From positions 1-32,000 of the forward strand of contig NQJD01000019.1 in the NCBI GenBank assembly GCA_004284765.1: DNA of 32,000 nucleotides, read 5' to 3'. The DNA is from Candidatus Electronema aureum. Lineage in GTDB: Bacteria > Desulfobacterota > Desulfobulbia > Desulfobulbales > Desulfobulbaceae. A program made the position numbers and the translations under genes. The notes beneath the pieces were generated by a model. It was not told the DNA's origin. It saw only the letters and a program-made list of their open reading frames with translations, and made no database searches. Within the stretch, counting starts at the first letter, position 1; each line of letters begins with the position of its first letter. Below, one piece after another: positions 133-20,073 of the stretch.

Positions 133-192
133 AAGTTGTGTTCTAATGCAGCAAGTTCCTCTAAAATTTTTCCGCATACGGAGAAAAAAAAC

Positions 193-609
193 ATGATGAA
201 CATTGATAGACGGGATTTCCTCAAGACAGCCGCTGCCGCAGCTTCTGTTGTCGCTGTGGGTTCAGCAGCTTCAGCTTTTGCCGCTGATGCTGCGCCTTCT
301 TTGGCTGGCATCGTTTATACTAAGGAGCAGCCGGGCCAGTGGAAGGGCAAGGAAGGCAGTCATGCGCCAACCGTGACAGTTGAGGGCAGCAAAGTTTCCG
401 TTATCACTCCGCATCCGATGACTGCCGAGCATTTCATCGTTCGCCATACTCTGGTGCTGGCCGATGGTACGGTGCTTGGGGGCAAGAGCTTTACTCCGAC
501 TGACAAGCCAGAATCCTCCTTTGAGCTACCCAAGGACTACAAGGGTAAAATCTGTGCTACCAGCTTTTGCAACCAGCATGATTTTTGGCTGACTGAAGCG
601 ACCGTCTGA
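193..609 (+). CDS. Tat-exported desulfoferrodoxin/neelaredoxin-family (superoxide reductase-like) protein
   Basis: I chose the ATG at 193 because GGAG lies about 11 nt upstream; the ORF-track start at 136 is an unlikely extension. The N-terminus MMNIDRRDFLKTAAAAASVVAVGSAASAFA is a twin-arginine signal. The mature part carries the SOR centre-II ligand motifs: SHAP (His), HPMTAEHFI (His..His) and CNQHDFW (Cys..His). Confidence 0.8.
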   Translation: MMNIDRRDFLKTAAAAASVVAVGSAASAFAADAAPSLAGIVYTKEQPGQWKGKEGSHAPTVTVEGSKVSVITPHPMTAEHFIVRHTLVLADGTVLGGKSFTPTDKPESSFELPKDYKGKICATSFCNQHDFWLTEATV

Positions 610-668: not shown

Positions 669-772
669 CTGCCTTCACCTTTCCTTGCTGACTTTTCTGC
701 TATGTTGTGAAACAATGCAAATATAGTTTTACCCTGATTTTATTCAGCAATCACAGTGGTGAAAGTTGGCAA

Positions 773-2611
773 ATGAAACGTATCTTTTTATTCTTATTCA
801 TTTTTCTGGTGGCCACAGATGCTCTTTATTGCATCGTGATTCAGCCACAGCCTGCTCTCCGAGAAGCGGTGCGTTTGCCAACTCTCAACGAATTGGCAAC
901 TGCCGGAAAGCAAATTGCCGAATCCCGCATCGTGCGCCAGATCGTCTCTGGGGATTGGCTGCGTCCGCAACCGCTTGATCCCATAGCCTTGGTGCCGGAA
1001 GAGGCAGTGCTCATGCTCGACACGGCCAACGCCGCAGCAGCTGGCCGCGCTTTTTTATCTTCGCGGTTCGGGCAAACGTTATACTCTGTCCGCTGGTCTG
1101 CTGTACTTGATCAGCTTGAAGTGCCGAAAATATTTCGTCTGCCGGTTGAGCAGCAGCTTGCTAACCTGACTACCCTGCTTGCCAATCCGCTGCTTCAAGA
1201 TATTCTCAAAAGAAGGACAGTAATCGCTCTACTGGCTCCGCCGCCGCCAACCGCTGCCTCACTCCAAGGCATTCTCGAACATAGCCTCCTGCTCACTGCT
1301 TCTACACAGGGAAACAGCACCGCTGCTGTCCTTTCTCTGCTAAAAGCAACCGAGAAACAAGTTGATGTGGTCTATCATCAAGGAGTCGGCATCTTGGTGC
1401 TTGAGCAACAGGGCCGCAAGCTCCATGTCGCGGCTATCGGAGGACAATTAGCTTTTTCCTTTGGCATAAAGCCGGTGCAGCGGAGCATTGACCTCTTTGT
1501 TAGGCATTTTGTCTATAAGCAGACCGGGTTATTGCGAAATCAAGATTATGCAGAACTGAAACAGCAAGCCCAAGGCCAAGATGATTTTTTCCTCTATGCG
1601 GACATCATTCGGCTCAAAGCACTGCTTGCTCCCACTGAAACGAATCTGTCACCTGCTTTAGACAATCCTACCGGTTCTCGCAGCATGGCCTTGTTTCATC
1701 ACCAAGGGGAAAAACGACAACAGTTCAGTGCAGCAGTGCGTTTTTCGCCAGAGCAGCTGCTTCCTTTTCAACGAGAAATCTATACGTCCACACCAGTATT
1801 GAATCGTACATTAGCAAAGATGCCAGCCAGCCTGCTGCTCTATTTCTGGATTGGTTGGTTAGAGCCGAACTTCTGGTATCAGACCTTGGTCAACAGTGGC
1901 AAGCAAGATGTGGTGGACAAAGCAGATGTTTGGTTCAACGAGCAAACCGGAATGACTTTTGCTGAAATTCTCTCCTTGTTCGGACGAGAATTCAGCGTTA
2001 ATATTGCCGAGATCAGCACTGCCGGACTTTTTCCTATACCCCGACTTTGCTTCATCATGGAGGTGCAGGAAAAGAAAAAAGCAGAACGTCTGCTTGCCAA
2101 ATTGATCTCTGGCCTACAGGTTAAGCGAGAAAAAATGTCGGGCGGTGTGACTGTGGTCTCGCTTCAAGCGGCACAAGGATTACTCCAGCCTTCTTACGCC
2201 GTTGTCGATGGCTTTCTCTACATGGCTGATAGCCGTGAGCAGTTACTGGACATCTTAGACGGAAAAAGCGAACGGATGATCGAGAACAGCACGTTTCAAG
2301 CGGTGGACACCGGGATGGGACAGCCTGCCAATCTGATGTTTTTTGTCCGCACGGCCCAGTTAGTTGATGGCCTCAAAGAATTGGTGGCGTGGGTTGGAAC
2401 GATGATCGCTGTTCGAGATGAGCAGGCTGGAGCGAAAAGCAAGATATTGGTCGATCAGGTTATTATGCCGATATTAGATAGTTTCCGAGGATGCGAGACA
2501 GTGGCACTGCGCAGTGTTACTCGCAGCGGCGAACTGATCGTTGAAGCATCGGCTTTTCAGGCTGAGGAAAAGCAAGAGCAAACGGCTGCTCTTCAAACAG
2601 AAGAACAGTAA
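773..2611 (+). CDS. hypothetical exported or membrane-anchored protein (613 aa)
   Basis: Long uninterrupted ORF. I chose the ATG at 773 (MKRIFLFLFIFLVATDALYC...), which gives a hydrophobic signal or anchor at the N-terminus; the track start at 707 adds a non-hydrophobic leader. I recognise no catalytic or family motif. The C-terminal tail is Glu/Gln-rich. Confidence 0.65.
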   Translation: MKRIFLFLFIFLVATDALYCIVIQPQPALREAVRLPTLNELATAGKQIAESRIVRQIVSGDWLRPQPLDPIALVPEEAVLMLDTANAAAAGRAFLSSRFGQTLYSVRWSAVLDQLEVPKIFRLPVEQQLANLTTLLANPLLQDILKRRTVIALLAPPPPTAASLQGILEHSLLLTASTQGNSTAAVLSLLKATEKQVDVVYHQGVGILVLEQQGRKLHVAAIGGQLAFSFGIKPVQRSIDLFVRHFVYKQTGLLRNQDYAELKQQAQGQDDFFLYADIIRLKALLAPTETNLSPALDNPTGSRSMALFHHQGEKRQQFSAAVRFSPEQLLPFQREIYTSTPVLNRTLAKMPASLLLYFWIGWLEPNFWYQTLVNSGKQDVVDKADVWFNEQTGMTFAEILSLFGREFSVNIAEISTAGLFPIPRLCFIMEVQEKKKAERLLAKLISGLQVKREKMSGGVTVVSLQAAQGLLQPSYAVVDGFLYMADSREQLLDILDGKSERMIENSTFQAVDTGMGQPANLMFFVRTAQLVDGLKELVAWVGTMIAVRDEQAGAKSKILVDQVIMPILDSFRGCETVALRSVTRSGELIVEASAFQAEEKQEQTAALQTEEQ

Positions 2612-3796: not shown

Positions 3797-4894
3797 ATGA
3801 AGGCAAATGCCCTACGGAAACCGCTGATCAATACGGCGGTTGTTCTGGTATTTTTTATCGTGCTGCTCTCGATCAGCATCGCCAACCCGGCAACAACAGC
3901 ACTGGGTTCTTTTGGGTTGATCATTCTTGCTGGCCTCCGCGCTCTCCAGCTCTTTGTTGGTTTATCTATCGCGTTGATTTTCTGTTTAGCCTTCCTCTTC
4001 GCCATCTTTTTCGGTGCAGTTGCTTTAGCAAACCCGGATACCGCTGCCCGTATGTACGGAGAATTTCGTCAGACACTCGCTGCTTGGCTTGGAGAGATCA
4101 TACCTGCTTGCAAAAAAAAAACACAGCAGCACGTCAATCTTGAACCAATGCGCCAAGAATTGAAACAGGAACTTCAAGCTGATCTTGCGGCTATTCAGAC
4201 TCAGCTGCACGCCACCAGAGAACTGCTGGGCGGTAAAATTGAGCAGCTTTCTCACCGAATTGACGTACTGGAAACAATGACCACCCAGATGGCTAACACG
4301 GGCGAAGTGGAAGCTCTGAGCAAGGAAGTGAAGGGTGCGGTGGCCTCGTTGGCTGGAATCGAGGGCGCAGTGAATAGTATGAAAGTCTGTGTCGAGCAAA
4401 CAGCCCAGCAGATTCTTCAGATGTCACCAGAGAAGGTTCTCGGTGACGTGCCAGAGCGACTGCGGACGCTGGAGCAACACCAGCCAAAGGTGATCGACAT
4501 CACCCCGTTAGAAAAAGACATCGCGGTCATGCAGCAGGAGTTAGCTTCTGTGCGAGAGAAGGCCGATAAAGTTCTGCTTGCTGCTGCTCCTGAAACCGTG
4601 CTTGTGCAAGAGCCAGTGCTGGTTGTCGCAGAACCAGAACAGGTGGCGGCACAGCAGGTAGAGGTACAGACAGGTTCAGCAGAGGAAGAGCATCGGATAC
4701 TCAGCTATTTCGATAACCATGCAGACAAGCAGAGATTTATTGAATTAGCCGATGCAGCGTTAGAGAAAGGTTTGAATCACAAGCAGGTGATTGATTATTT
4801 AGTCAGAGGATTAGGGCAGCAGAAAGGGAAGATCATCAGCTCGCACCCATCACTGATTAAAGACTACATCAAAAGCTGTCGGCGGAACGACTAA
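3797..4894 (+). CDS. hypothetical membrane protein: about 3 N-terminal TM helices, a long coiled coil, and a small C-terminal domain
   Basis: SD AAGGGA lies upstream. The N-terminal ~95 aa form three hydrophobic stretches (VVLVFFIVLLSISIA, FGLIILAGL..., LIFCLAFLFAIFFGAVALA). The middle has heptad-like Q/E/L-rich sequence. I recognise no family. Confidence 0.65.
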   Translation: MKANALRKPLINTAVVLVFFIVLLSISIANPATTALGSFGLIILAGLRALQLFVGLSIALIFCLAFLFAIFFGAVALANPDTAARMYGEFRQTLAAWLGEIIPACKKKTQQHVNLEPMRQELKQELQADLAAIQTQLHATRELLGGKIEQLSHRIDVLETMTTQMANTGEVEALSKEVKGAVASLAGIEGAVNSMKVCVEQTAQQILQMSPEKVLGDVPERLRTLEQHQPKVIDITPLEKDIAVMQQELASVREKADKVLLAAAPETVLVQEPVLVVAEPEQVAAQQVEVQTGSAEEEHRILSYFDNHADKQRFIELADAALEKGLNHKQVIDYLVRGLGQQKGKIISSHPSLIKDYIKSCRRND

Positions 4895-6462: not shown

Positions 6463-7788
6463 CTACTTGCCCCGCAGCTTGGCGCGAATATCTTCTAATG
6501 CCTTGCGCCATTCTTCCAGTTTAGGATGGCCAAGCTCTTCCGCAAGCTGCACAGCTCGGCTGATGTATGGCTCCGCCTTGCTCAGGTCGCCCTGCTTTAT
6601 GTACGCAATACCGATATTCCAGCTTGTCTCTGCTTCCCCTCGCCTGTCGCCAATCTCCCGGCGGATGCTAAGGCTCTGCTCTAAATAGGTTAGGGCATCG
6701 CCCTTGGCATGATGAAGCGCACCGATGTTACTCAGCGTTGTGCCTTCCATTGTCCGGTTGCCGACTTCCCAATGAATGACAAGGCTCTGCTCTAAATAGG
6801 TCAGGGCAGTGGTGTAGTCTCCTCGCGCATCGTAAATCTGGCTGATGTTGTTCAGCGTTGTGCCTTCCCCTTCTTTGTCGCCAATCTCCCGGCGGATGAC
6901 AAGGCTCTGCTCTAAATAGGTCAGGGCAGTGGTGTAGTCGCCCCGCGCATGGTAAATCTGGCTGATGTTGTTCAGCGTTGTGCCTTCTACTGCCCGGTTG
7001 CCGATCTCCTGTGTTATCATCAGGCTCTGCTCTAAATAGGTCAGGGCAGTGGCGGAGTCGCCCCGCGCAGAGTAAATCTGGCTGATGTTGTTCAGCGTCA
7101 CGCCTTCCCCTGCCTTGTCGCCAATCTCCCGGCGAATGACAAGGCTCTGCTCATACAAGGACAGGGCTTCGCTGTAGCGGGCAACCCGGTGGAAGTCATA
7201 GCCTGCCTCGTGCAAATAGAGCGCGCGTTCCTTCTTCTTGTCTTCCGGCAGCAGGGCAGCGGCCTTCTGCCAGTAGGCGGCGGCCTTGGCGTAGCGCAAC
7301 TGCACTTCTTGCAGCTTGGCCAAGTCTGCATTGGCCTCAGCAGCAGCAATGCTCTGCTGCTTGGCAACGTCCTCCAGCAGCTGTTCCGCCTTGGCGTAGT
7401 CGCCAGCCTCAATGGTCTGCTTGGCCGTTTGGTCGTCTCCCACGCGGGCCAGCAGTTCTTTGTAGTTGGCGGCTATCTCGCGCAGCTTGCTGTCTAAGTC
7501 GCCCGGCGGCACCTGCTGCTCCTCCAGTATCTTGAAGAAGCTGGCAAGGGCGGCCTCGGTGACGGCGAGCTGGCCTGCAAGCTCCTCAAGGCGTTGCGGG
7601 GGGATAACGCTGTTGTTGTATGTCACCGTGACATGACCCTTCTCCGCAATGATCGCCGGGGACTGGTTGCCAGTAGTGAAGATGCGGCCCAGCAGACGGC
7701 AAAAGAAGTTGTTCACTTGCTTGCCGATGGCGTGGTCGCCTATGCCAGTGTTCTGCTCGCCACCGCCGCTCTCAAACTTGTTGTCCAT
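6463..7788 (-). CDS. tetratricopeptide-repeat protein (TPR_10/12-type 40-aa repeats) with an uncharacterised ~150-aa N-terminal region
   Basis: Strong SD AAGGAGAG 5 nt before the ATG, which lies 33 nt downstream of the mfd stop. It contains about 6 repeats of the form EGTTLNNISQIYxARGDYTTALTYLEQSLVIRREIGDK. Confidence 0.85.
   Translation of the reverse strand: MDNKFESGGGEQNTGIGDHAIGKQVNNFFCRLLGRIFTTGNQSPAIIAEKGHVTVTYNNSVIPPQRLEELAGQLAVTEAALASFFKILEEQQVPPGDLDSKLREIAANYKELLARVGDDQTAKQTIEAGDYAKAEQLLEDVAKQQSIAAAEANADLAKLQEVQLRYAKAAAYWQKAAALLPEDKKKERALYLHEAGYDFHRVARYSEALSLYEQSLVIRREIGDKAGEGVTLNNISQIYSARGDSATALTYLEQSLMITQEIGNRAVEGTTLNNISQIYHARGDYTTALTYLEQSLVIRREIGDKEGEGTTLNNISQIYDARGDYTTALTYLEQSLVIHWEVGNRTMEGTTLSNIGALHHAKGDALTYLEQSLSIRREIGDRRGEAETSWNIGIAYIKQGDLSKAEPYISRAVQLAEELGHPKLEEWRKALEDIRAKLRGK
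6670..7140 (-). repeat. in-frame tandem DNA repeats (111+120+120+120 bp) inside the TPR gene
   Basis: Units start at 6670, 6781, 6901 and 7021, each with AAGGCTCTGCTCTAAATAGG (the 7021 unit begins CAGG...). The first ~88 nt of the three 120-bp units are nearly identical, with 3 differences between the 6781 and 6901 units. The last ~30 nt diverge. Confidence 0.9.
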
Positions 7789-7821
7789 GTTCTCTCCTTA
7801 TACGCTGCATCGGAGCAGCAA

Positions 7822-10800
7822 TCACTCCTGCCAACCAAGCAAGCGCAGAATCGCCGCAAGCTGTGCGAACAGCTCCGGCTCGGTTTTCAGGGCGACAATC
7901 AGTCGCCCATCCGGGGTGAGACGCACGGGTTCTGGCGCAGGCTTCTGCCCCTTTCTCAGCAGCTTGGGCTGCTTGAGTCGGAAGCGTTCGATAAAGGCCA
8001 GCAGGGTTTCTGGGGCAACCGTGGTCTGCTCGCTGAAACTAAAGACTAACCCCACTGGTGCCTGCTCCACCTTGCTGATGCCTAAGCAGCGCAACGGATG
8101 CTTCAACGCCAGCAGCGAGAACAGTGTTTCGGCTTCAGGCGGCAGCGGGCCAAAGCGGTCAATCAGCTCGTCCTTCAGGTCAGCAAGCTGCTCAGGAGCA
8201 GCAGTGCCTGCTGCCGACAGCCTGCGGTAGAGACGGTAGCGCAGGCCGGTTTCGCGGACATAATCATCCGGCAGGAAGGCAGCCACAGGCAGCTTGATCT
8301 CCGGCTCTGGCACAGTGGCTTGAGGCGCACCGCCAGCAGCGGCCTGACTCTTCAGATCAGCGACTGTCGCTTGCAGCAGTTCTAAGTACAGATCATAGCC
8401 GACTGCGGCGATGTGGCCGGACTGGGACTCGCCCAGCAGACTGCCGCCGCCGCGCAGTTGCAGATCGTTCATCGCCAGCTTGAAGCCGCTGCCCAGCTCT
8501 GAGCAGTCCATCAAGGCGCGGAGCCGCTGCTCGGCCTCGCTCGTTAGCTGTTCAACATCCGGCACGAGCAGATACGCATACGACTGGCGCGTTGCCCGGC
8601 CCACCCGCCCGCGCAGCTGGTAGATATCAGCCAAGCCGATGCGGTCAGCCCGGTTGATGATGATGGTGTTGGCATTGGCAATATCTAAGCCGGACTCAAC
8701 AATGGTGGTGCAGACCAGCACATCCACCTCATGGCTGATGAAACTGACCATGATCTCTTCCAGCTCGCTGCCCGGCATCTGGCCGTGCGCCACGGCAATC
8801 CGGGCGGTCGGCGCAAGCTGATGCAGATGCTCGGCCATCGCGTGAATGGACTGGATGCGGTTGTGGATGAAGAAAACCTGACCGCCCCGCGCCAGCTCCT
8901 GCTGCACCGCTTCTCGGATGACTAAATCATCCTTGCGGGCTAAGAAGGTCTTCACGGCCCGGCGATGTCGGGGCGGACTGGAGATCACGGACAGATCACG
9001 GATGCCGAGCAGGGACATCTGGAGGGTGCGGGGAATGGGCGTGGCGGTCAGCGTCAGCACATCAATATTGGCCCGCAGCCGCTTCAGCCGCTCTTTGTGC
9101 GAAACCCCGAAGCGGTGCTCCTCATCGACAATCAGCAGGCCGAGCTTATGGAAGGATATGCTGTCCGAGAGCAGCCGGTGTGTGCCAACCACGAGGTTGA
9201 TCTGGCCGGACTTGAGGTCGTTGCTGATCTGCTTCTGCTCCTTGCTGCTGCGGAAGCGGCTGGTGCAGGCCACGTTGATGTTGAAACCAGCAAAACGTTC
9301 GCGGAAGGTGGCCGCGTGCTGTTCAGCTAAAACCGTGGTCGGCACTAAGACCGCGACCTGAAAGCCGTCCTCAATCACCTTGCAGGCTGCACGCACTGCC
9401 ACTTCTGTCTTGCCATAGCCCACGTCGCCGCAAACCAGCCTGTCCATCGGCTTCGGGGCCAGTAGGTCGCGCAGCACATCGTCAATCGCGGCAGCCTGTC
9501 CCTCAGTCTCGTCATAGGGAAAGGATTCAGCCAGCTCCTTGTACAATCTACCCGGCGGCTCGAAGCTGTGGCCTTGGCGCATTTCGCGCCGGGCGTAGAT
9601 ATCTAGCAGCTCCTGCGCCTTCTGCCAGACTGCCTCTGTCACTTTGCGCTTGGCCGTCTGCCAGCGCGAGGAGCCGAGCTTGTCTAATTTGGGTTGCTCG
9701 TCACTGAGGCCCTGGTAGCGGCTGATCAGGTGGAGCTGATCAACCGGCACATAGAGGCGGTCATTGCCGAGAAACTCCAGCAGGAGGAAGTCACCGCGCT
9801 GTCCGGCAAAGTCCATGTTGACCAAGCCCTGGAAACAGGCCAGACCATGATCACGGTGAACAGCGGTTTCGCCGACCGCGATGTCCTCCAGTGCCAGCTG
9901 CTCTTTCTGGGCAATGCGGCCTTTTCTGCGCGAGCTTGGGCCAAGCCGTTTCTCACCAAACAGCTCGCCTGCGGACAGGATATGCAGCCCTTCGTCTGGC
10001 AGATCAAAGCCTTGCGAGAGCGGATGTTCGACGAGGAGCAGCGCACCGCGCGGGCAATCGGCAAGAACAAGGGGAGTCTTGGCCCGCTGCGAGTGCAGGC
10101 CGCAGCCTGCCAGCATCTCTTCTAAATGCTCGGCTTGCAGGCTGGACCGGCAGGCGATGATCGCTGTCTCTTTGGCCCGCAGCCAGTTAGTCAGCCGCTC
10201 GGCCAAGGGCGCGATCACGCCCCGCTGCTTGCGTCCCAGCTCGATCTCCTGCTGAAGCAGGGTATGGCCGCTGCCCTGCTGACCGTCTGGCGCAAGCTCT
10301 GGGCAAAGATCAAAGCGCGGTCGTTCTGCCAATCGCCGTTCCAGCTCTGCCGGGCTGAGGAACAGGCTTTTCGGCGGCAGAGCAAAGCCTTCTCCAGCCG
10401 CTTCCGCACAGTTGTGTTCGATGCGCTCCCAAAGCAGCCCGACTTTATCGCTCACCGCAAGCGGGTCTTGCACCACGCAGACTGCGCCTTGCGGCAGATA
10501 GTCAAACAAAGTCTGCGGCTCAGGGCAGATCAGGGGCAGAAGAAACTCAATGCCGGGGAAGCGGTGCTGCTCTTTGAGCTGCTGCAAAGCTGTGGTGTCG
10601 GTAAAACCAAAAGCCTCGGCCCGATGAGCCAGCTCCTCCTGCCATTGCGCCAAGGCAGCAGCATTGCGGGGAAAGAGGATGTCGGCTGCGGGCAGGAGAA
10701 TCGCCTCGTCCAGCTCTTCCTCAGAACGCTGGGTGAGCGGATCAACCACCCGGATGGATTCGACCATGTCGCCCTTGAAGGCGAGACGCAGGAACTTGCC

Positions 10801-11319
10801 CTCAAGGGCAGGTCGGAAAGGCGGGGGAAAGCAATCGACAATCCCGCCGCGCCCCGCCAGATCACCGGGCTGCTGCACCAGCTCGCAATGCTGATAACCG
10901 TTGCCGAGCAAGGCTGTAAGCAGCCCTTCACGGTCGGAGTCTTCTCCGGCCATGACTAACTCGCAGTGATCATTCAGCACGTTTCCGGGCAGCACCCGCC
11001 GCAGCACTGCTTCTGCTGAGGCTAAGATAATGCCGGGCTGACTACGTTCATGCAGGAAATGGAGCGCGGCGATGCGGGCAGCAGTGGTGGCTGGATCAGG
11101 GTTGAGGCGGGCGTAGGGCGGAATCTCAAAGGCCGGATACAGCAGCACCGGTGTGCTGGTAAACAGGCTGATGTCCCGCGCCAATGGCTCCAGCAGCTCA
11201 TCTGTCGGGATGATGCAGCAGATGCTCTGCTGCTGTTCCGCCTGAAGCCGGGCTATGCACAGGGCGGTGCTGCCGTGGTTGGGGCAGGAGAAGGAGAGTT
11301 GGTTATGAATGGGAAGCAT
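7822..11319 (-). CDS. mfd: transcription-repair coupling factor Mfd
   Basis: 1165 aa. It has the UvrB-homology N-terminal module, an RNAP-interaction region, and a superfamily-2 translocase with Walker A GDVGYGKTEVA, DEEHRFGV and QLRGRVGR. The length and order are typical of Mfd. Confidence 0.95.
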   Translation of the reverse strand: MLPIHNQLSFSCPNHGSTALCIARLQAEQQQSICCIIPTDELLEPLARDISLFTSTPVLLYPAFEIPPYARLNPDPATTAARIAALHFLHERSQPGIILASAEAVLRRVLPGNVLNDHCELVMAGEDSDREGLLTALLGNGYQHCELVQQPGDLAGRGGIVDCFPPPFRPALEGKFLRLAFKGDMVESIRVVDPLTQRSEEELDEAILLPAADILFPRNAAALAQWQEELAHRAEAFGFTDTTALQQLKEQHRFPGIEFLLPLICPEPQTLFDYLPQGAVCVVQDPLAVSDKVGLLWERIEHNCAEAAGEGFALPPKSLFLSPAELERRLAERPRFDLCPELAPDGQQGSGHTLLQQEIELGRKQRGVIAPLAERLTNWLRAKETAIIACRSSLQAEHLEEMLAGCGLHSQRAKTPLVLADCPRGALLLVEHPLSQGFDLPDEGLHILSAGELFGEKRLGPSSRRKGRIAQKEQLALEDIAVGETAVHRDHGLACFQGLVNMDFAGQRGDFLLLEFLGNDRLYVPVDQLHLISRYQGLSDEQPKLDKLGSSRWQTAKRKVTEAVWQKAQELLDIYARREMRQGHSFEPPGRLYKELAESFPYDETEGQAAAIDDVLRDLLAPKPMDRLVCGDVGYGKTEVAVRAACKVIEDGFQVAVLVPTTVLAEQHAATFRERFAGFNINVACTSRFRSSKEQKQISNDLKSGQINLVVGTHRLLSDSISFHKLGLLIVDEEHRFGVSHKERLKRLRANIDVLTLTATPIPRTLQMSLLGIRDLSVISSPPRHRRAVKTFLARKDDLVIREAVQQELARGGQVFFIHNRIQSIHAMAEHLHQLAPTARIAVAHGQMPGSELEEIMVSFISHEVDVLVCTTIVESGLDIANANTIIINRADRIGLADIYQLRGRVGRATRQSYAYLLVPDVEQLTSEAEQRLRALMDCSELGSGFKLAMNDLQLRGGGSLLGESQSGHIAAVGYDLYLELLQATVADLKSQAAAGGAPQATVPEPEIKLPVAAFLPDDYVRETGLRYRLYRRLSAAGTAAPEQLADLKDELIDRFGPLPPEAETLFSLLALKHPLRCLGISKVEQAPVGLVFSFSEQTTVAPETLLAFIERFRLKQPKLLRKGQKPAPEPVRLTPDGRLIVALKTEPELFAQLAAILRLLGWQE

Positions 11320-12366: not shown

Positions 12367-12396
12367 TTGACAGAAGAATCTTTTCTGCGCTAAATG
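12367..12396 (+). promoter_or_regulatory. candidate sigma70 promoter for the AAA+ gene
   Basis: TTGACA (12367..12372), an 18-nt spacer, then TAAATG (12391..12396). It overlaps the first ATG of the ORF, so if it is real, translation starts further downstream (for example the ATG at 12499). Confidence 0.3.
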
Positions 12397-14769
12397 ATGA
12401 ATCAGGCACGATCTGGCCATGATTGCGGCGTTTCAGTGGTTTTCTCGCAGACAGCCTGCCTGCTTCTCCTTGTTCTTTTGACTAAAAACAGCCAGCCCAT
12501 GACCATGACCGCCCACAGCTCTAAGATACTTTTCCTTGGCTCCAACGTCAAAATCACCAACTTGCCAATCAAGGAAGTGAGCTTGTTGGAAGAGGGCAGC
12601 TTGCCCGCCTATGGTTACAACCCAGGTGATAACATTGTCTTGTTAGCCGGGCCAGTTACCATCGAAAAGGGACGATTAGAACAAAGCCTGACGTGGTTGA
12701 CTAGCTATTTAGCTGGTTCAGAGCTGAGTCCTCGAATCAACACTCTTTCTTACGGTACAGAACGGCAGGTTTATCAGTTGTTTCGTAAACGGCGGGGCAG
12801 CCGAGACAGCAAGGAAGAGGGCTGGTTTATGGTTAAACAGCTCCTGCCTGCCGAAGAGCGCGGCTCAATTGGACCGACATTCACCTTTAGTGCGCATGAA
12901 TACGCCATTGCTGGTTCCAACACCGGCATGGTGCTGATCGATGACTCCGGGATGCCGCCGCAAATCTGCGACGAAATGAGCGAGCTAAACCCTGGTATGT
13001 GGTGTATCGCCTTGGGAATTTCGGTTGCCCACTGGCAGCAATGGGCGAGGTTGCTCGGTGAACGCTTTACCCTTTTCTGCCGCCTCTCTGATTTGGAAAC
13101 TACCCGGATGGAGATGGATTCCTCGGTCAACTGGGAAACCATTGTTGCTATGTGCTTGCGTGCTTTGCGCACACCTGAAGTTGGCCTTTGGGACAGCCAG
13201 CAGCACCGCTTTCTCTGTCGGATTATTATTGAGATGTTTCCTCATGCTATTCTCTATGTCGGCCCAGATGCGATCTATTTTCGTTATCGCAAAGGCAGCT
13301 TGCCGGAGAAAAGTTCCTCACGTAAACGCGGCTCTGTACCTTGTTACGACACAATGGTCACGGCCATGCTCACTTTGAAGGCCCTGCACACGAACGGCTT
13401 AGACTTTTCGCGCCGAGCCTTCTACGATTTCTCCAAGCAAGTGCTGTGTAATTGGAAAAAATTAGATGCACACGGCTATCATTTTGACGAAGGATTACGT
13501 CTGCCCACGCTGGATTGTTCTTCAGCCTGCCTCAGCGGTCTGCCTTGTTCGTGCGCTGACAGTGTTGAAATTGATCCTTCCTTTATCGAGATGCCCTATT
13601 TCACTCCAGAATTTGAAGAGAACCTCGATTTTGCTGCTGGGCAGGCTTGGGGCGAGAAAAAGAAAAAGGCCTTGCGTTCCTTATTCCGCCATCAGTACGC
13701 GTATCCTTATTCAATCGAAGATATCAGCGGCACACAGCACCTGAGCTACATCGACATCATCATGTCTGTGCTGCATTGCCTCAAGGAAGAGGTGAATCGA
13801 GGTACTGGCTTTGATAATCTGCCTATTTTTCAGCTCGGACATCTTCGCACCACGGACCCAGCAGAAATCGATCCTGTGCTGACTCTGCATCAGGTCATGG
13901 ATTCCTATGTTTCCAAAGAATCAGTGCTGCGACCGCTCTGCATCGGCGTATTTGGCCCGCCTGGTTCGGGTAAATCCTTTGCAGTCAAGCAGGTGGCCGA
14001 TGAGATCGCTAATCAGTCTGGTGGCAATCCTTTTGTTTTCTTTGAATTCAATTTAACCCAATTTGCTGGCCCAGACGAAATCAACGCAGCCATTGATCCT
14101 ATTCGTGCTTCAGTGGCGCAGGGCAAGGTACCCATTGTTTTCTGGGATGAATTCGACTGTCGCTACGATGGGCATGAGTTCGGCTATCTTCGCTATTTTC
14201 TGCCAGCGATGCAGGACGGCGTTACCTATGTACAGGGTATTCCTTATCATATCGGCAGGGCCATTTTTGTCTTTGCTGGCGGGGTCAAAGCCAGCTGGGA
14301 AGGAATGGAGCGGCTACTTACTCCCAAGAAGCCGAAAGACCTCCAGTTGACGAAGACTTTGAAAATACCAGATTTTATGAGCCGCCTGCGGGTAGTATTA
14401 GATATCGACGGCATTGAATTGCCAGAATACCTGCTCAAAGATTCAGTCACTGAGGAAGAAATGGAGGAGCTGCGGCGCATTCTCCTCAAACGGGCATTTA
14501 TCATTGCCCACCAAATGCAGACCCACTGGAAAAGCGCGGCCCGCAAAACCTCTGGCCTGCTGCTCCGATTGCTTTTGGCTGATTACAAGTTCGGTGCCCG
14601 TTCGATTGAAGCAGTCATTGAGGCCAGTCGGGCTGCTGACCGTTTGGTTTATGGTCTGCCAGAGCTGATTGCACCTTCCGCCGCCCGTATTCATGCTGAT
14701 TGGCGAGTGGATATGGAACGGAAGATTGACCAATTCCGCAAAGGAAAGGGCGTGCGAGCTGTGTGGTAA
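12394..14769 (+). CDS. AAA+ ATPase with a large uncharacterised N-terminal region
   Basis: A single long ORF. The classic AAA module is in the C-terminal third: Walker A GPPGSGKS (13954..13977), Walker B IVFWDEFD (14134..14157), then ...IFVFAGG..., ...FMSRLR..., and a lid ...GARSIEAVIEASR. I recognise no motif in the preceding ~480 aa. The start is uncertain (12394, or the ATG at 12499), and neither has a clear SD. Confidence 0.8.
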   Translation: MMNQARSGHDCGVSVVFSQTACLLLLVLLTKNSQPMTMTAHSSKILFLGSNVKITNLPIKEVSLLEEGSLPAYGYNPGDNIVLLAGPVTIEKGRLEQSLTWLTSYLAGSELSPRINTLSYGTERQVYQLFRKRRGSRDSKEEGWFMVKQLLPAEERGSIGPTFTFSAHEYAIAGSNTGMVLIDDSGMPPQICDEMSELNPGMWCIALGISVAHWQQWARLLGERFTLFCRLSDLETTRMEMDSSVNWETIVAMCLRALRTPEVGLWDSQQHRFLCRIIIEMFPHAILYVGPDAIYFRYRKGSLPEKSSSRKRGSVPCYDTMVTAMLTLKALHTNGLDFSRRAFYDFSKQVLCNWKKLDAHGYHFDEGLRLPTLDCSSACLSGLPCSCADSVEIDPSFIEMPYFTPEFEENLDFAAGQAWGEKKKKALRSLFRHQYAYPYSIEDISGTQHLSYIDIIMSVLHCLKEEVNRGTGFDNLPIFQLGHLRTTDPAEIDPVLTLHQVMDSYVSKESVLRPLCIGVFGPPGSGKSFAVKQVADEIANQSGGNPFVFFEFNLTQFAGPDEINAAIDPIRASVAQGKVPIVFWDEFDCRYDGHEFGYLRYFLPAMQDGVTYVQGIPYHIGRAIFVFAGGVKASWEGMERLLTPKKPKDLQLTKTLKIPDFMSRLRVVLDIDGIELPEYLLKDSVTEEEMEELRRILLKRAFIIAHQMQTHWKSAARKTSGLLLRLLLADYKFGARSIEAVIEASRAADRLVYGLPELIAPSAARIHADWRVDMERKIDQFRKGKGVRAVW

Positions 14770-14939
14770 GCAAGACGAAACCACCGCCTCTGCGCCGTTT
14801 ATTGGTATCTCTCCTCCGCCAGAACTGTTGCGGTAGCCTGCGAAATTGTGGTATGTAACAGTCTGCCTGAGAAGCATTCTTTCGGGCAGCGGTTACTGCG
14901 CTGCGACCGCTGCTCCGGTTGCACATCTTGTTCAGGAAC

Positions 14940-17876
14940 ATGGAAGCTAACACCAAGATCATTATCGGAAATCCGCTTTCTCTGCCCTGTGCCGCGTTAC
15001 TCGCTGCCGCGCTGGCTCTGCATTTGATCAGCCTGTACAACTATCTTCTTTTTCACACCTTAACCGAAATCTTTAGCGTAACGGTTTCCTGCGCAATTTT
15101 TATTTTTGCTTGGAACACGAAGCAAATGCAGAGAAACCACTGCCTGCTCTTCCTCGGCATCGGCTGCCTGTTTACCGGCTGGCTCGATTTGCTCCATTGC
15201 CTAAGCTATAAAGGGATGAATATTTTCAATCAACCCCAAATAGCGACTGAAAATGTCTCCTGTCAGCTTTGGATTGCCGCCCGATATATAGAGAGTGTCT
15301 CGCTGCTGTTAGCCTTTCTTTTTTTGAACAGAATCCTCAGTTCGCACCGGGCCGTGGCTGCTTATTTGACGATAACGTGCCTCATTGTCTTCACCATTTT
15401 CATCTGGCCCATTTTTCCGCTCTGCTATGATGAACAGGCCGGTTTGACCGTCTTCAAAAAAAGCAGCGAATACCTGATATCCTTCTTTTTAACCTGCTCG
15501 TTGTTGCTTCTACACTGGCACCGTGGCCGCTTTGACCGTGATGTTCTCCGCTTGATGCAGGCCGCAATTCTTTTCGCCATCGCAGCAGAGTTATTCTTCA
15601 CTTTTTATGTGGACAGTCACGATCTCTTAAATTTTGCTGGACACTGCTTCCGCATTTTCTCCTGTTACGCCATTTATCGGGCAGTGATTGAGACGGGATT
15701 GACTCAGCCTTTTAGCACGTTGTTTCGGGAATTAAACACACACAAGACCGAATTAGAGAACAAGGTACAGGAGCGCACCGCCGACCTGCAACAAAGCCGA
15801 GATAATCTCCAAGAAGAAATGGCCGAGCGACTGAAGGCAGAAAAGGAGCTGCTTTGGGAGCTATCCGTCAACCGAACACTGGCGCAAGTTGCTGATGCCC
15901 TTATTTCTCGCTCGTTACCGGTACGAGAGATTGAAAAATTAGTAGGTCGGGCAGTTAAGGAGTTGATCGGTAGTGAATACGGTACGGCCAAGGCCGCCCA
16001 TTACGATCCGACAGAGGACAGCGACTCAGGTATGCCGTGGGAAAGCGTTCTCAACACCCGCCAGAGCTTTTTCACTAATTCCATATCTTCGAATGAGCGC
16101 ATCATGGGCATTCCACCGAATCAGATGCCCTATCGAAACTATCTGCATGTGCCTGCGATCATTGACGGCAGAGCAGTCGGACGCATTGCTTTAGCCAACA
16201 AAGAGGGCGAATTCAGTAAGCACGACTTGATTGCTTCAGAACGAATCGCCGCTGTGTTTGCCTTGGCCGTGCAACGCAAACAAACCGAGGATTCCTTGAG
16301 CCGAAGCGAGCGTAAATACCGCAGCTTGTTTAATGATGCTCCTGATATGATTCATATCGTTGGGATCGACAAACGGATCGCTGATGCTAACCCAGCTGAA
16401 CTACAAACGCTGGGTTGCGCCCGCGAAGAGTTGGTCGGCACGCCGCTTTTGAACATCATTCATCCTGAATTCCGCCACAAAAGCGCGCAAGCCCTCGATC
16501 AAATATTTTCTTTCGGTCGCTGTATGCAACATTACGAAACCGCCCTGATCACCAAAGAGGGTGACAAGATTGATGTGGAAGTCAGCGCGGTACCGCAGGT
16601 AGAGAGCGGCAGAGTAGTGACAGTGCGAGCAATTATGCGCAACATCACTGAGCGAAAACGGGAGGAGCAGGAACGCAAGAAGCTGGAGGCCCAATTGCGG
16701 CAATCGCGGAAGATGGAAGCCATCGGCACTTTGGCTGGCGGTATCGCCCATGATTTCAACAACATTTTGGGGCCGATTCTTGGTTATACTGAGATGGCCT
16801 TAGAATTCCTACCAGCTGGCAGTAACATCGCCCCTTGGTTAGAGGAAGTGCAGTGCGCAGGAAGTAGGGCTAAAGAATTAGTGCGACAAATTCTCGCTAT
16901 CAGCCGCAAATGCGAGCAAGAGCTACAACCGCTTCGTATCCAGCCGATCATCAAGGAAACGCTCAAACTGCTACGTTCTTCTCTGCCTGCCACGATTGAA
17001 ATCCGCCAGCAGCTTGATCCTGCCTGCGGTACCGTGCTGGCTGATCCCACTCGGATTCATCAGGTGGTGATGAACCTTTGCACTAACGCCTACCATGCAA
17101 TGCGAGAAACCGGCGGATTACTGGAAGTCTCCTTGCGGCAGATCGAGCTAACTGCTGACACCTTGCAGAGTAAACTGCGACTACCGCTTGGCATGTATCT
17201 TCAGTTAGAGGTAAGGGACTCTGGCTGCGGTATGCCAGAAGAAATGTTGGAGAAAATTTTTGAGCCGTATTTCACCACCAGAGCTAAAGGTGAAGGGACC
17301 GGGTTGGGATTGGCCTTGGTGCAGAGTATTGCGCTCGATTTTGGTGGCGATGTTACCGTGACGAGTGAACTGGGCAGAAATACGGTTTTTCTGGTATATT
17401 TACCGGTGATCCAAACCGCTAAAGAAGACCGTATAGGCAATGATGCTAGATTGCTGCCGACCGGTTCTGAGCGGATAATAGTAGTTGATGATGATATCAA
17501 CATCGCTGAACTGAGCAGAAACATGCTGGCAAGTCTTGGCTACCGGGTCATGGCACTGAACGGCAGCACTGAGGCCTTAACCGTGTTTGAGCAGCAGCCA
17601 GAGGCTTTTGATCTGGTTTTCACTGATATGACCATGCCGCAGATGACTGGCGCAGTTTTGGCCAGAAAAATTCTTGCCCTTCGTCCTGAGCTGCCGGTGG
17701 TGCTTTGTACCGGCTTCAGCGAGTTGATCGATGAGCAGAAAGCCACAGAAATCGGCATCTGCGCTTTGCTCATGAAGCCCTTTACCAAAGGGGAATTGGC
17801 TTTGACAGTGCGTACCGCGCTCGACCGGAACGTGCAGAAGTTGCCACTCATTGAAAAAAGAGATATAACATGCTGA
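14940..17876 (+). CDS. hybrid sensor histidine kinase/response regulator (MASE3-like membrane domain, coiled coil, GAF, PAS, HisKA, HATPase_c, REC)
   Basis: I chose the ATG at 14940; the track start at 14919 is a TTG. The protein has about 7 TM helices including [23 protein letters not shown] (MASE3-like). The H-box is [10 protein letters not shown]. The ATP-lid motifs are DSGCGM and GEGTGLGLA. The receiver domain reads IIVVDDD...[10 protein letters not shown]...K. Confidence 0.9.
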
Positions 17877-17936: not shown

Positions 17937-18467
17937 ATGAAATATTCCGTGTACCTGTCGGCAATAGCTTTGTTGCTGCTGGCGGCAAAACCATCAGCGG
18001 CACTTGCTTCTGGCAGTAAAACTGCTGCGGATGCGGCAGAAGCTGACAAAAAACTCCACGAAGTCTTAGTTTCCTACACCGCGCCTTTTCACCAAGTAGT
18101 GCTCACCAAAGACCTGCATCTTACTGACACCGAGGAAGTGACTGAATACGATAATCCGGTTTCTTCGACCCCTTCAAAAACCGTCACGGTGAAAAAAACT
18201 GCCCAAATATCCAAGGAGCAGGCAGCAGAACTGTTGCTCTTCATCAAAGAAAACGGTTTTCATCAGCTCAAGGATGAATACGGAGCCGGGCCGCAAGAGC
18301 GCAACTATCCCTACACAATCCTTGTTCGAGAAGACGGAACGCGCGAAAAGCAAGTAGTTTATCGCAGCAACCCAGCAGCAGCGGCCCGCCCTAAGGCGTT
18401 TTCTCAAACGGAAAAAAAGATCATCGAGTTCGCCAGCAAGGCGGTTCAACTCAAAACAGGAGAATAA
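17937..18467 (+). CDS. exported hypothetical protein (176 aa)
   Basis: The ATG at 17937 is preceded by GGGAGAAG. The signal peptide is MKYSVYLSAIALLLLAAKPSAALA. I recognise no family. The stop is 1 nt before the next gene's ATG, with AGGAG embedded in the 3' end. Confidence 0.65.
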   Translation: MKYSVYLSAIALLLLAAKPSAALASGSKTAADAAEADKKLHEVLVSYTAPFHQVVLTKDLHLTDTEEVTEYDNPVSSTPSKTVTVKKTAQISKEQAAELLLFIKENGFHQLKDEYGAGPQERNYPYTILVREDGTREKQVVYRSNPAAAARPKAFSQTEKKIIEFASKAVQLKTGE

Positions 18468-18468
18468 T

Positions 18469-19422
18469 ATGAAAGCGGCAAAATTAGTGTTGGTTGCAGT
18501 ATCTCTGCTGCTGTTCGCAGGTACACTGTCCTCTGACTGGGCAGAGGCGCAGGGACGCAGACAGCGGGAAGCAGAACGCGAGGTCGAGGCAGGCGGCTGG
18601 CAGGTGGCCTATGGCAAGGAATTGACGGAAACAGATGCCGAGCAAGGTGAGGTCGCATCGGGAGTTTCCATTTTTGCCGGACGTGGCACAAGAGAAATGG
18701 GTGTGCTGCATAATTGGGCGGACGCGCTGGTGCGGCAAGCAGTGGGCTTACTGCCACCTGCGGCGACTCGTGATTTTGAGCAAGAGGAGCGATTTCAGGC
18801 CATGCGTTTCACCGTGCGCACCGTGCGGGAGCTGCTGCGTGACAGACGTTCCGGCGTAAAGCAGATGGAACTCAATTCAGTGGAACTCAAGGTCGGTGTG
18901 CTGGAATACCGAGGCAGTCGCAGAGACAGAGAATGGGGTGCTGAAAGGGAAAGAAGATCAGATCTACTTTTTGTCCCTTATGTAGGAATGCGGGCAAAAG
19001 TAGATAAAGAAGACTGGCGCAGCGACCGTGATGAACTCCGTGAGCAGCGTGAGCCAAATGCCGCTTACGCACCGCCGGTCATTGATTCTCCGCATCAGTA
19101 TCAACATGTGCCAATGGGACTGAGTTCTGCTGAAGTGATGAATGAGTTATCGCTCAACAACACTGCCCGCAAAATCAACGATAAACGCTGGGAGTGGACC
19201 GCTTACATTGACGGGCCTGCATCGTATCTGCGCCGGATCAGCTCGGTCACGTATTATCTACATCCTTCGTTCAATCCCAGCACCCAGCAGGGCGACCGCA
19301 CTCGGCCCGGCCATCCGCTGACCGCAAACGGTTGGGGAGTTTTTGTTCTCAAAGCAGAAGTTGTTTTAGATGATGGAACACGCCGCATTTATCAACACCA
19401 GCTGCGACTTGGGCAGCTCTAA
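18469..19422 (+). CDS. exported protein: novel N-domain, Arg/Asp/Glu-rich linker, and a C-terminal YEATS-like (pYEATS) domain
   Basis: The signal peptide is MKAAKLVLVAVSLLLFAGTLSSDWAEA. The N-domain is paralogous to the next gene. The C-terminal ~90 aa read KRWEWTAYIDGP...VTYYLHPSFNP...NGWGVFVLKAEVVLDDGTRRIYQHQLRL, which matches the YEATS pattern (LHxSF and G-aromatic-G-x-F). Confidence 0.7.
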   Translation: MKAAKLVLVAVSLLLFAGTLSSDWAEAQGRRQREAEREVEAGGWQVAYGKELTETDAEQGEVASGVSIFAGRGTREMGVLHNWADALVRQAVGLLPPAATRDFEQEERFQAMRFTVRTVRELLRDRRSGVKQMELNSVELKVGVLEYRGSRRDREWGAERERRSDLLFVPYVGMRAKVDKEDWRSDRDELREQREPNAAYAPPVIDSPHQYQHVPMGLSSAEVMNELSLNNTARKINDKRWEWTAYIDGPASYLRRISSVTYYLHPSFNPSTQQGDRTRPGHPLTANGWGVFVLKAEVVLDDGTRRIYQHQLRLGQL

Positions 19423-19485: not shown

Positions 19486-20073
19486 ATGATGAGAGCATCA
19501 AGATTGGTATTAGTCGCAGTGTCTGTGCTGCTGCTCGTTGCCGCAGCACAAGACGTTTTTGCTCAGAGAAGGTGGCGAGCAAAGGAAGAAGTGGAAGCGG
19601 GCGGCTGGTATGTAGCCTACGGTAATGAACTGACGGAAGGTGATGCTGCGCGAGGTAACGTGGAATCATGGGTTTCTTTGCAAAACAGTGACAGAGAGAC
19701 CATCAGAACATGGTCTGACTCATTGCTCCGGCAGGCTATTGCCTTGATGGTGAGCAATGCTGGCCCAGAGTCAGCAGACAGATTTGAGCGAGAGCATCAA
19801 CGCGATGCGCGAAGATTCGGCGTTGAAACGCTGAGAGACTTGCTTGGCAGCAGGACTTCTGGCGCGCAGATATTGTCGTTGCGTTCGATTGAATTCAAGG
19901 CAGGGGTGATGGAGTATAGAGATAGAAACTCAGATTACGGCAGGCGGCGGGATACCGTGTTCATGCCATACTTTGCCCTACGGCCAAAATATGGCCATCG
20001 CTCTCGTCATGATGGATATCGAGATGACCGGGACGACTACAGACGGGATAGATACGACCGACGGGGATATTGA
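19486..20073 (+). CDS. exported paralog of the N-domain of 18469..19422, with an Arg/Asp/Tyr-rich tail
   Basis: The signal peptide is MMRASRLVLVAVSVLLLVAAAQDVFA. By eye it is about 40% identical to the upstream gene over ~150 aa (EVEAGGWxVAYGxELTExDA, LLRQA, RFxVxTxRxLL, SxExKxGVxEYR). The tail reads RSRHDGYRDDRDDYRRDRYDRRGY. Confidence 0.7.
   Translation: MMRASRLVLVAVSVLLLVAAAQDVFAQRRWRAKEEVEAGGWYVAYGNELTEGDAARGNVESWVSLQNSDRETIRTWSDSLLRQAIALMVSNAGPESADRFEREHQRDARRFGVETLRDLLGSRTSGAQILSLRSIEFKAGVMEYRDRNSDYGRRRDTVFMPYFALRPKYGHRSRHDGYRDDRDDYRRDRYDRRGY

Follow-up and report, generated by a model that had tools for sequence, protein, structure and literature searches.

We analysed a 32,000-nucleotide stretch of the cable bacterium Candidatus (Ca.) Electronema aureum (contig NQJD01000019.1, positions 1 to 32,000 of the forward strand; hereafter the window), which harbors at 18469..19422 (+) a gene for a protein with a C-terminal prokaryotic YEATS (pYEATS) domain. 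As claimed in an earlier note on this DNA, the gene is an uninterrupted open reading frame (ORF) that translates without stops into 317 amino acids (aa). The product belongs to the Pfam pYEATS family by every criterion that we ran. From its sequence, it is predicted to be a Sec-exported, cysteine-free, soluble envelope protein. Translation, Pfam, and 28 full-length orthologs delineate a signal peptide, an orphan N-terminal domain (N-domain), a linker, and the pYEATS domain, in this order.

Gene layout and export signal

By direct sequence inspection, an AGGAG Shine-Dalgarno sequence is found at 18458..18462 (+), within the 3′-terminal part of p186, the gene upstream, and the ATG start codon follows 6 nt downstream. 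The next methionine, M77, lies within the conserved N-domain; thus, no alternative start can skip the signal. A promoter and terminator scan yielded hits at chance level.

The N-terminus, MKAAKLVLVAVSLLLFAGTLSSDWAEA/QG, combines the basic residues K2 and K5 with a hydrophobic core of 15 residues (L6-L20) and A25-E26-A27 at positions −3 to −1. A Sec-type signal peptide is therefore predicted for residues 1-27 (18469..18549, +), with cleavage at AEA/QG. This tripartite n/h/c layout recurs in 28/28 orthologs despite only 39% identity of the segment, in agreement with the export signal proposed in the earlier note. The export calls were made with a home-made heuristic, which also flags N-terminal transmembrane anchors and which, in a control on the ORFs of the window, gave one apparent false positive among ~9 cytosolic proteins. 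The hydrophobic segment could accordingly be an uncleaved signal anchor that holds the protein at the inner membrane, both domains then lying on the periplasmic side. Besides this ambiguity of the heuristic, such an anchor would agree with the AlphaFold2 (AF2) model, which shows residues 2-40 as one long low-confidence helix. However, the core is limited to ~15 residues, and the polar c-region behind it has small residues at −3/−1 in all orthologs, making an anchor very unlikely. The compartment of the pYEATS domain would in any case be unchanged: with a cleaved signal or an anchor alike, it faces the periplasm.

The mature protein contains no cysteine. Across the orthologs, the mean pairwise identity rises from 35% in the linker and 39% in the signal to 53% in the N-domain and 68% in the pYEATS domain, which is the slowest-evolving region of the protein. 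Two thirds of the protein consist of the orphan N-domain and the disordered linker. The earlier note does not consider the N-domain, nor the tandem paralog, the coupling to p186, or the origin from a cable bacterium. The N-domain, an alpha/beta domain in the AF2 model (residues ~35-179; 18571..19005, +), is predicted with very high confidence when modelled alone (predicted local distance difference test, pLDDT, 91.7; predicted template modelling score, pTM, 0.86), and E40, G43, W44, G60, W83, K141, G143, P170, and Y171 are invariant. It has no sequence match in Pfam, NCBIfam, or the PDB, and a Foldseek search against the PDB returned no fold match better than an expect value (E) of 0.2. The linker (residues 180-227; 19006..19149, +) varies between 22 and 88 aa across the orthologs and has a pLDDT <50 for residues 180-215.

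The pYEATS domain and its pocket motifs

The pYEATS domain forms the C-terminal end of the protein (residues 228-314; 19150..19410, +). Residues 241-312 match positions 1-72 of the 73 in Pfam pYEATS PF20305 at 57 bits (gathering cutoff 26.9; E 1.8e-15), and the eukaryotic Pfam YEATS PF03366 also scores above its cutoff (34 versus 22 bits; E 2.9e-08). In a phmmer search of the PDB, human YEATS2 is the top sequence match (E 5e-05). The PF20305 assignment is also precomputed for all 28 orthologs, and homologs are already labelled “pYEATS domain-containing protein” by NCBI; the domain call as such was thus known from both resources. These matches bear out the YEATS-like C-terminus read from the sequence in the earlier note. 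Its positions for the two pocket motifs are likewise correct, whereas the stretch it quoted begins at K239 (nt 19183) and not at ~19150.

The fold is equally clear. The AF2 model, built with 28 homologs, contains a confident C-terminal beta-sandwich (residues 228-311, block pLDDT 78-94). In a Foldseek search against the PDB, the check suggested in the earlier note for an immunoglobulin (Ig)-like YEATS fold, 50/50 best matches are YEATS domains (E ~1e-05, probability 1.0), among them AF9, ENL, YEATS2, GAS41, Yaf9, Taf14, and Sas5. The TM-scores, normalized to the target, are 0.5-0.6 over ~100 aligned columns.

The pocket of YEATS2 provides the reference for the ligand site. In its complex with crotonylated H3K27 (H3K27cr), the ligand is contacted by H259, S261, Y262, W282, G283, E284, and F285 (PMC4856769). 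The aromatic sandwich consists of Y262 and W282, hydrogen bonds to the amide involve S261 and W282, and G283 does not tolerate a side chain; alanine mutants of each listed contact weaken or abolish crotonyl-lysine (Kcr) binding (PMC4856769). By alignment to these residues, pocket motif 1 of the Electronema protein, L264-H265-P266-S267-F268 (19258..19272, +), corresponds to L258-H259-P260-S261-Y262, and pocket motif 2, G288-W289-G290-V291-F292 (19330..19344, +), to G281-W282-G283-E284-F285 (PMC4856769). Thus, in the HMMER alignment, H259, S261, Y262, W282, G283, and F285 align to H265, S267, F268, W289, G290, and F292, respectively. The sole residue of the YEATS2 pocket list that is not kept is E284, a contact to the histone peptide.

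The motifs are conserved well beyond this protein. The 28 orthologs show no variation at H265, F268, G288, W289, G290, and F292 and have serine or threonine at position 267, so that the retention of the pocket motifs predicted in the earlier note holds throughout the family at the level of sequence. Across 129 pYEATS domains from 70 other proteins, the corresponding positions are occupied by H in 81%, S/T in 87%, F in 86%, W in 79%, G in 91%, and F in 93%. This pattern supports the view that the pocket motifs are kept under strong purifying selection, and the domain may consequently bind acyl-lysine or a related acyl-amide.

Alternatively, the pYEATS domain could be a structural Ig-like spacer or an interaction domain, serving oligomerization or the docking of p186, the paralog, or the kinase described below; it would then read no small moiety, and the motifs would act as determinants of the fold. 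Ig-like domains are commonly passive in exported bacterial proteins, the YEATS2 peptide contact E284 is not retained, and no modifying enzyme is encoded in the neighbourhood. However, the strongest conservation across phyla falls on loop residues that line the pocket, including the glycine and the S/T hydroxyl, and not on the buried core. We regard the spacer as possible but doubtful.

The comparison with YEATS2 (PDB 5IQL, 5XNV, 6LSD, 7EIE), a reader of acyl-lysine at H3K27, also delimits what is shared. Both domains adopt the Ig-like sandwich, and LHPSY/GWGEF in YEATS2 face LHPSF/GWGVF here, with all Kcr-binding residues defined by mutagenesis retained except E284. YEATS2, however, belongs to the chromatin proteins of the eukaryotic nucleus; the Electronema protein, in contrast, is bacterial and exported. 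Its domain is basic, comprises ~90 aa compared to ~130 aa in YEATS2, and carries a valine in place of E284. The replacement of E284 together with the basic character of the domain (isoelectric point, pI, ~10) indicates that the ligand context is not histone-like. A histone or chromatin context is thus not given for this bacterial exported protein, which would resemble a chromatin YEATS reader in its mode of action without being one.

An exported branch of the pYEATS family

Exported pYEATS proteins are abundant, and this is what is new for the family as a whole. A word-indexed homolog search queried with only the pYEATS domain yielded just one protein and was hardly informative. With a 3-sequence profile, HMMER was run exhaustively against 1.84 billion cluster representatives and returned many pYEATS proteins. 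This profile also kept the N-terminal part of one representative (P0029), so the 2026 matches (E ≤ 1e-3) mix two domains and their totals are unusable; only representatives whose best stretch fell in the pYEATS part were counted. Among the 60 nearest pYEATS representatives, which stem from other phyla, ~47 carry an N-terminal export-type hydrophobic segment, and most of the others are 5′-truncated fragments. Many of the exported proteins are fused to peptidases. The combination of signal and pYEATS domain, taken for a peculiarity of this copy in the earlier note, is therefore widespread.

All 48 representatives scanned are bona fide pYEATS proteins. Most of them comprise ~220 aa and pair a signal with two pYEATS domains in tandem, while 8/48 are fused to Peptidase_C1, a class with 2-3 pYEATS copies, and 2/48 to an M10-like metallopeptidase. 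The closest relative of the pYEATS domain outside the orthologs (56% identity) is that of P0029, a member of an exported HExxH class. Four proteins of this class (P0029, P0047, P0048, and P0089) are exported and place a Pfam-unrecognized HExxH domain, putatively a metallopeptidase, in front of the pYEATS domain. The N-terminal part of the class also occurs without pYEATS, which accounts for a large share of 150 listed representatives.

The position of pYEATS behind unrelated secreted peptidases and its tandem repetition fit a substrate-targeting or ligand-binding module whose target would be a feature borne by a peptide. The same observation speaks against a passive spacer, as attachment to the C-terminus of several unrelated peptidases that are secreted and repetition in tandem are both typical of modules that target substrates or bind ligands. 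Like the Electronema protein, the exported proteins of other phyla have an N-terminal export signal and a C-terminal pYEATS domain with an intact pocket. In contrast to them, the Electronema protein has no recognizable peptidase, contains a single pYEATS domain, and is encoded in a cassette with p186 and a reader-less paralog. The exported branch with the same pocket thus comprises pYEATS domains in tandem alone, on secreted peptidases, and on a cable-bacterial orphan domain.

A second branch is cytoplasmic. In species-representative genomes, cytoplasmic pYEATS domains are fused to patatin, TIR, and SIR2, and stand-alone pYEATS proteins occur in Nitrososphaera archaea; one caspase-pYEATS fusion is signal-bearing. 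At four loci (L019, L025, L027, and L032), the patatin fusions of Runella and Spirosoma and a planctomycete TIR fusion adjoin a common neighbour of ~231 aa without Pfam match, and a TPR-S protein is encoded upstream at L019, which suggests a conflict-system context for the cytoplasmic branch. The cytoplasmic PF20305 proteins share family and pocket motifs with the Electronema protein. They lack a signal peptide and carry conflict-type effector domains, whereas here we find export, an orphan N-domain, and no match in PADLOC. The pYEATS family is thus divided into a cytoplasmic effector-fusion branch and a large extracytoplasmic branch, and the Electronema gene belongs to the latter.

Full-length relatives of the protein were found only in Ca. 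Electronema, two metagenome-assembled genomes (MAGs) of Desulfobulbaceae, and metagenome contigs. The closest is the hypothetical protein VU08_03760 (97% identity) of “Desulfobulbus sp. F5”, which is Ca. Electronema nielsenii isolate F5; the neighbouring genes are 97-99.5% identical to those of this isolate. Besides nielsenii F5, full-length relatives are present in Ca. Electronema PJ, JM, KV, halotolerans, JC, and V4. In all Electronema genomes scanned, the cassette is syntenic and its divergence parallels that of its neighbours, and this vertical, syntenic inheritance argues for a core cellular role. No relative of p186 or of the N-domain was detected among the neighbours of 32 non-cable pYEATS loci, which indicates that the cassette is lineage-specific. 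On a contig with 35% GC, however, a protein at L047:300-1235 joins a distant N-domain (E 2e-07) to pYEATS and lacks an upstream p186; the architecture of N-domain and pYEATS is therefore not strictly cable-bacterial.

Putative partner genes and candidate ligands

p186 (17937..18467, +) encodes 176 aa when counted from ATG, the listed ORF beginning at TTG 17907. Its stop codon (18465..18467) ends one base before the ATG of the pYEATS gene, and in two loci with orthologs of 41-42% identity (L045 and L046), the two genes overlap by 4 nt. Except in the distant L047, p186 immediately precedes the pYEATS gene at all examined loci that include upstream DNA. Judged by this spacing, the pYEATS gene is translationally coupled to p186. 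Both p186 and the paralog are likewise signal-bearing, and p186 is predicted to be a conserved exported protein that has a lipobox in E. halotolerans and would be a lipoprotein in this species. DUF6438 matches p186 with 24 bits in 5/5 members, below its cutoff of 30, and a PDB sequence search with p186 gave nothing significant. A kinship between p186 and the N-domain was considered and rejected, as the profile comparison reflected signal-peptide similarity alone.

The gene is followed by a tandem paralog of 195 aa (19486..20073, +), which combines a signal peptide and an N-domain (45% identity over 148 aa, E 5e-33) with a tail rich in R/D/H/W/Y and has no pYEATS domain. It represents its own Electronema-restricted family of 16 clusters and is absent at the E. 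halotolerans locus. Low-complexity stretches rich in R/D/H/W/Y, such as RHDGYRDDRDDYRRDRYDRRGY, occur in the paralog tail (19990..20070) and also in ortholog linkers, for example in P0008, P0012, and P0020. In the assembly of Ca. Electronema nielsenii F5, the paralog is split into two frames (L005:7383-7834), probably by a frameshift error of the single-filament assembly.

Directly upstream of p186, a hybrid sensor kinase with the Pfam architecture MASE3-GAF-PAS-HisKA-HATPase-REC is encoded at 14919..17876 (+), its membership in the unit being a matter of position. Of nine distinct related loci of the Electronema type, eight keep the order kinase-p186-pYEATS, as does the distant L046. The usual order in Electronema is an OmpA-like lipoprotein (−), a 791-aa AAA-like protein, the MASE3 kinase, p186, the pYEATS gene, and the paralog. 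The proximity of the kinase suggests a possible role as periplasmic accessory or co-sensor.

An exported conflict or toxin cassette, with the N-domain as effector released from the cell, pYEATS for targeting, and p186 as immunity-like partner, would provide a different explanation for this arrangement. Elsewhere, pYEATS is fused to patatin, TIR, SIR2, and caspase, with one TPR-S neighbour; secreted peptidase-pYEATS fusions exist; and the small partner gene p186 is tightly coupled. Nevertheless, PADLOC-DB has no match for the pYEATS protein or the paralog and only a marginal one for p186 (RT_UG26, E 0.0013, 15.5 bits). The chromosomal position in Electronema is fixed and shows no mobile-element or polymorphic-toxin signature. 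Moreover, the N-domain is unlike any known toxin or enzyme, and the supposed immunity gene p186 is located upstream and is itself exported. We consider a toxin cassette quite improbable.

We slightly favour an exported three-part envelope protein, in which the pYEATS domain clamps an acyl-amide ligand and p186 acts as its partner, maybe as an accessory of the kinase. Here, the pYEATS domain would be the ligand-binding end and grip a planar N-acyl-amide exposed in the periplasm or the cell envelope. The pocket would be formed by the aromatic pair F268/W289, by H265 and S267 as hydrogen-bonding residues, by G290, which lacks a side chain, and by F292. Ligand binding would position the N-domain, while the paralog would supply an N-domain without reader. 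Co-production with p186, usually below the MASE3 hybrid kinase, would make the protein a periplasmic accessory of an envelope module. What the data establish are the identity and fold of the domain, its conserved pocket, the signal for export, the organization of the operon, the lineages that carry it, and how widespread exported pYEATS proteins are; amide binding, the nature of the ligand, the partnership with p186, and the link to the kinase are what we infer.

N-epsilon-acylated amides of lysine or diaminopimelic acid (DAP) are not foreign to this compartment. They occur outside the cytoplasm in peptidoglycan cross-links and in proteins attached to peptidoglycan, which is overlooked by the remark in the earlier note that no acyl-lysine reading is known there. 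The most plausible target would be such an isopeptide-type amide of lysine or DAP, carried by a peptide of the peptidoglycan or by an envelope protein; some other envelope molecule bearing an N-acetyl or N-acyl group would be a less likely target. The assignment to peptidoglycan isopeptides is speculative; the basic pYEATS domain (pI 10) would suit acidic stem peptides. By functional analogy, the pYEATS domain may be likened to LysM, SPOR, and OmpA-like modules, which are exported, non-catalytic tethers to amide-rich envelope polymers. Their folds and sequences are unrelated to pYEATS, and their ligands are known.

Several points weigh against this interpretation. The equivalence of the pocket to that of AF9 and YEATS2 is predicted from sequence alignment, and the domain is shorter than eukaryotic YEATS domains, as reflected in the TM-scores and aligned columns given above. 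E284, whose alanine mutant does not bind, is replaced by V291 and is mostly threonine in the family; the pI of 10.0 likewise points to a binding surface unlike that of histone readers. No pYEATS domain is known to have an assigned ligand, and our literature search found no paper that names the family. The N-domain and p186 have no recognizable relatives, and the roles we ascribe to them are guesses. The kinase link is positional only, with the kinase missing upstream in one MAG (L011), and the neighbourhood scan revealed no conserved acyltransferase, deacylase, or peptidoglycan enzyme nearby.

To our knowledge, YEATS domains are experimentally known only as nuclear readers of histone acylation. 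Our search of a library of 8 million papers returned none mentioning “pYEATS” and none joining cable bacteria with YEATS. The gene is not mentioned in the cable-bacteria genomics papers that we consulted, and in a conflict-systems paper of the Aravind laboratory, “YEATS” occurs as an author name only, with no match in the supplement. The novelty here lies in the compartment, in an orphan domain as partner, in a paralog that has no reader, in the coupling to p186, and in a distribution limited to cable bacteria. These features raise the testable question of which amide-bearing ligand is read outside the cytoplasm. Its answer would give a function to a domain family of several bacterial phyla and could add a component to the poorly understood envelope of cable bacteria. 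In a bolder version, which we hold to be improbable, exported pYEATS domains would be the first extracytoplasmic readers of isopeptide amides. The cable-bacterial cassette would then use this reader to fasten an orphan domain to the envelope that the cells share, for the architecture of the envelope and periplasmic fibres or for co-sensing with the MASE3 kinase, while elsewhere pYEATS would guide secreted peptidases.

Further observations concern the surroundings of the cassette. The 791-aa protein upstream of the kinase (12394..14769, +) stands far above its neighbours in conservation, with 80-99% identity among all Electronema loci; it has a weak AAA match (26 bits), a sub-threshold bpMoxR match, and no significant PDB sequence match. 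The contig of P0028, a distant ortholog (42% identity), has a type IV pilin gene at L045:320-832, immediately followed by p186 and the pYEATS gene. A link to pilins was rejected, as neither the window nor any of the Electronema loci contains a pilin motif. The GC content of the window rises to 0.60-0.62 at ~7000..11000, compared to ~0.50 elsewhere, in a region that covers mfd (7822..11319, −) and the final part of a TPR gene. Two sizeable ORFs at 707..2611 (+; 634 aa) and 3797..4894 (+; 365 aa) match nothing in Pfam and encode a hydrophobic segment at the N-terminus. Finally, a small protein encoded at 136..609 (+) combines a twin-arginine translocation (TAT) signal with a desulfoferrodoxin-like domain, suggesting an exported superoxide-reductase-like protein.

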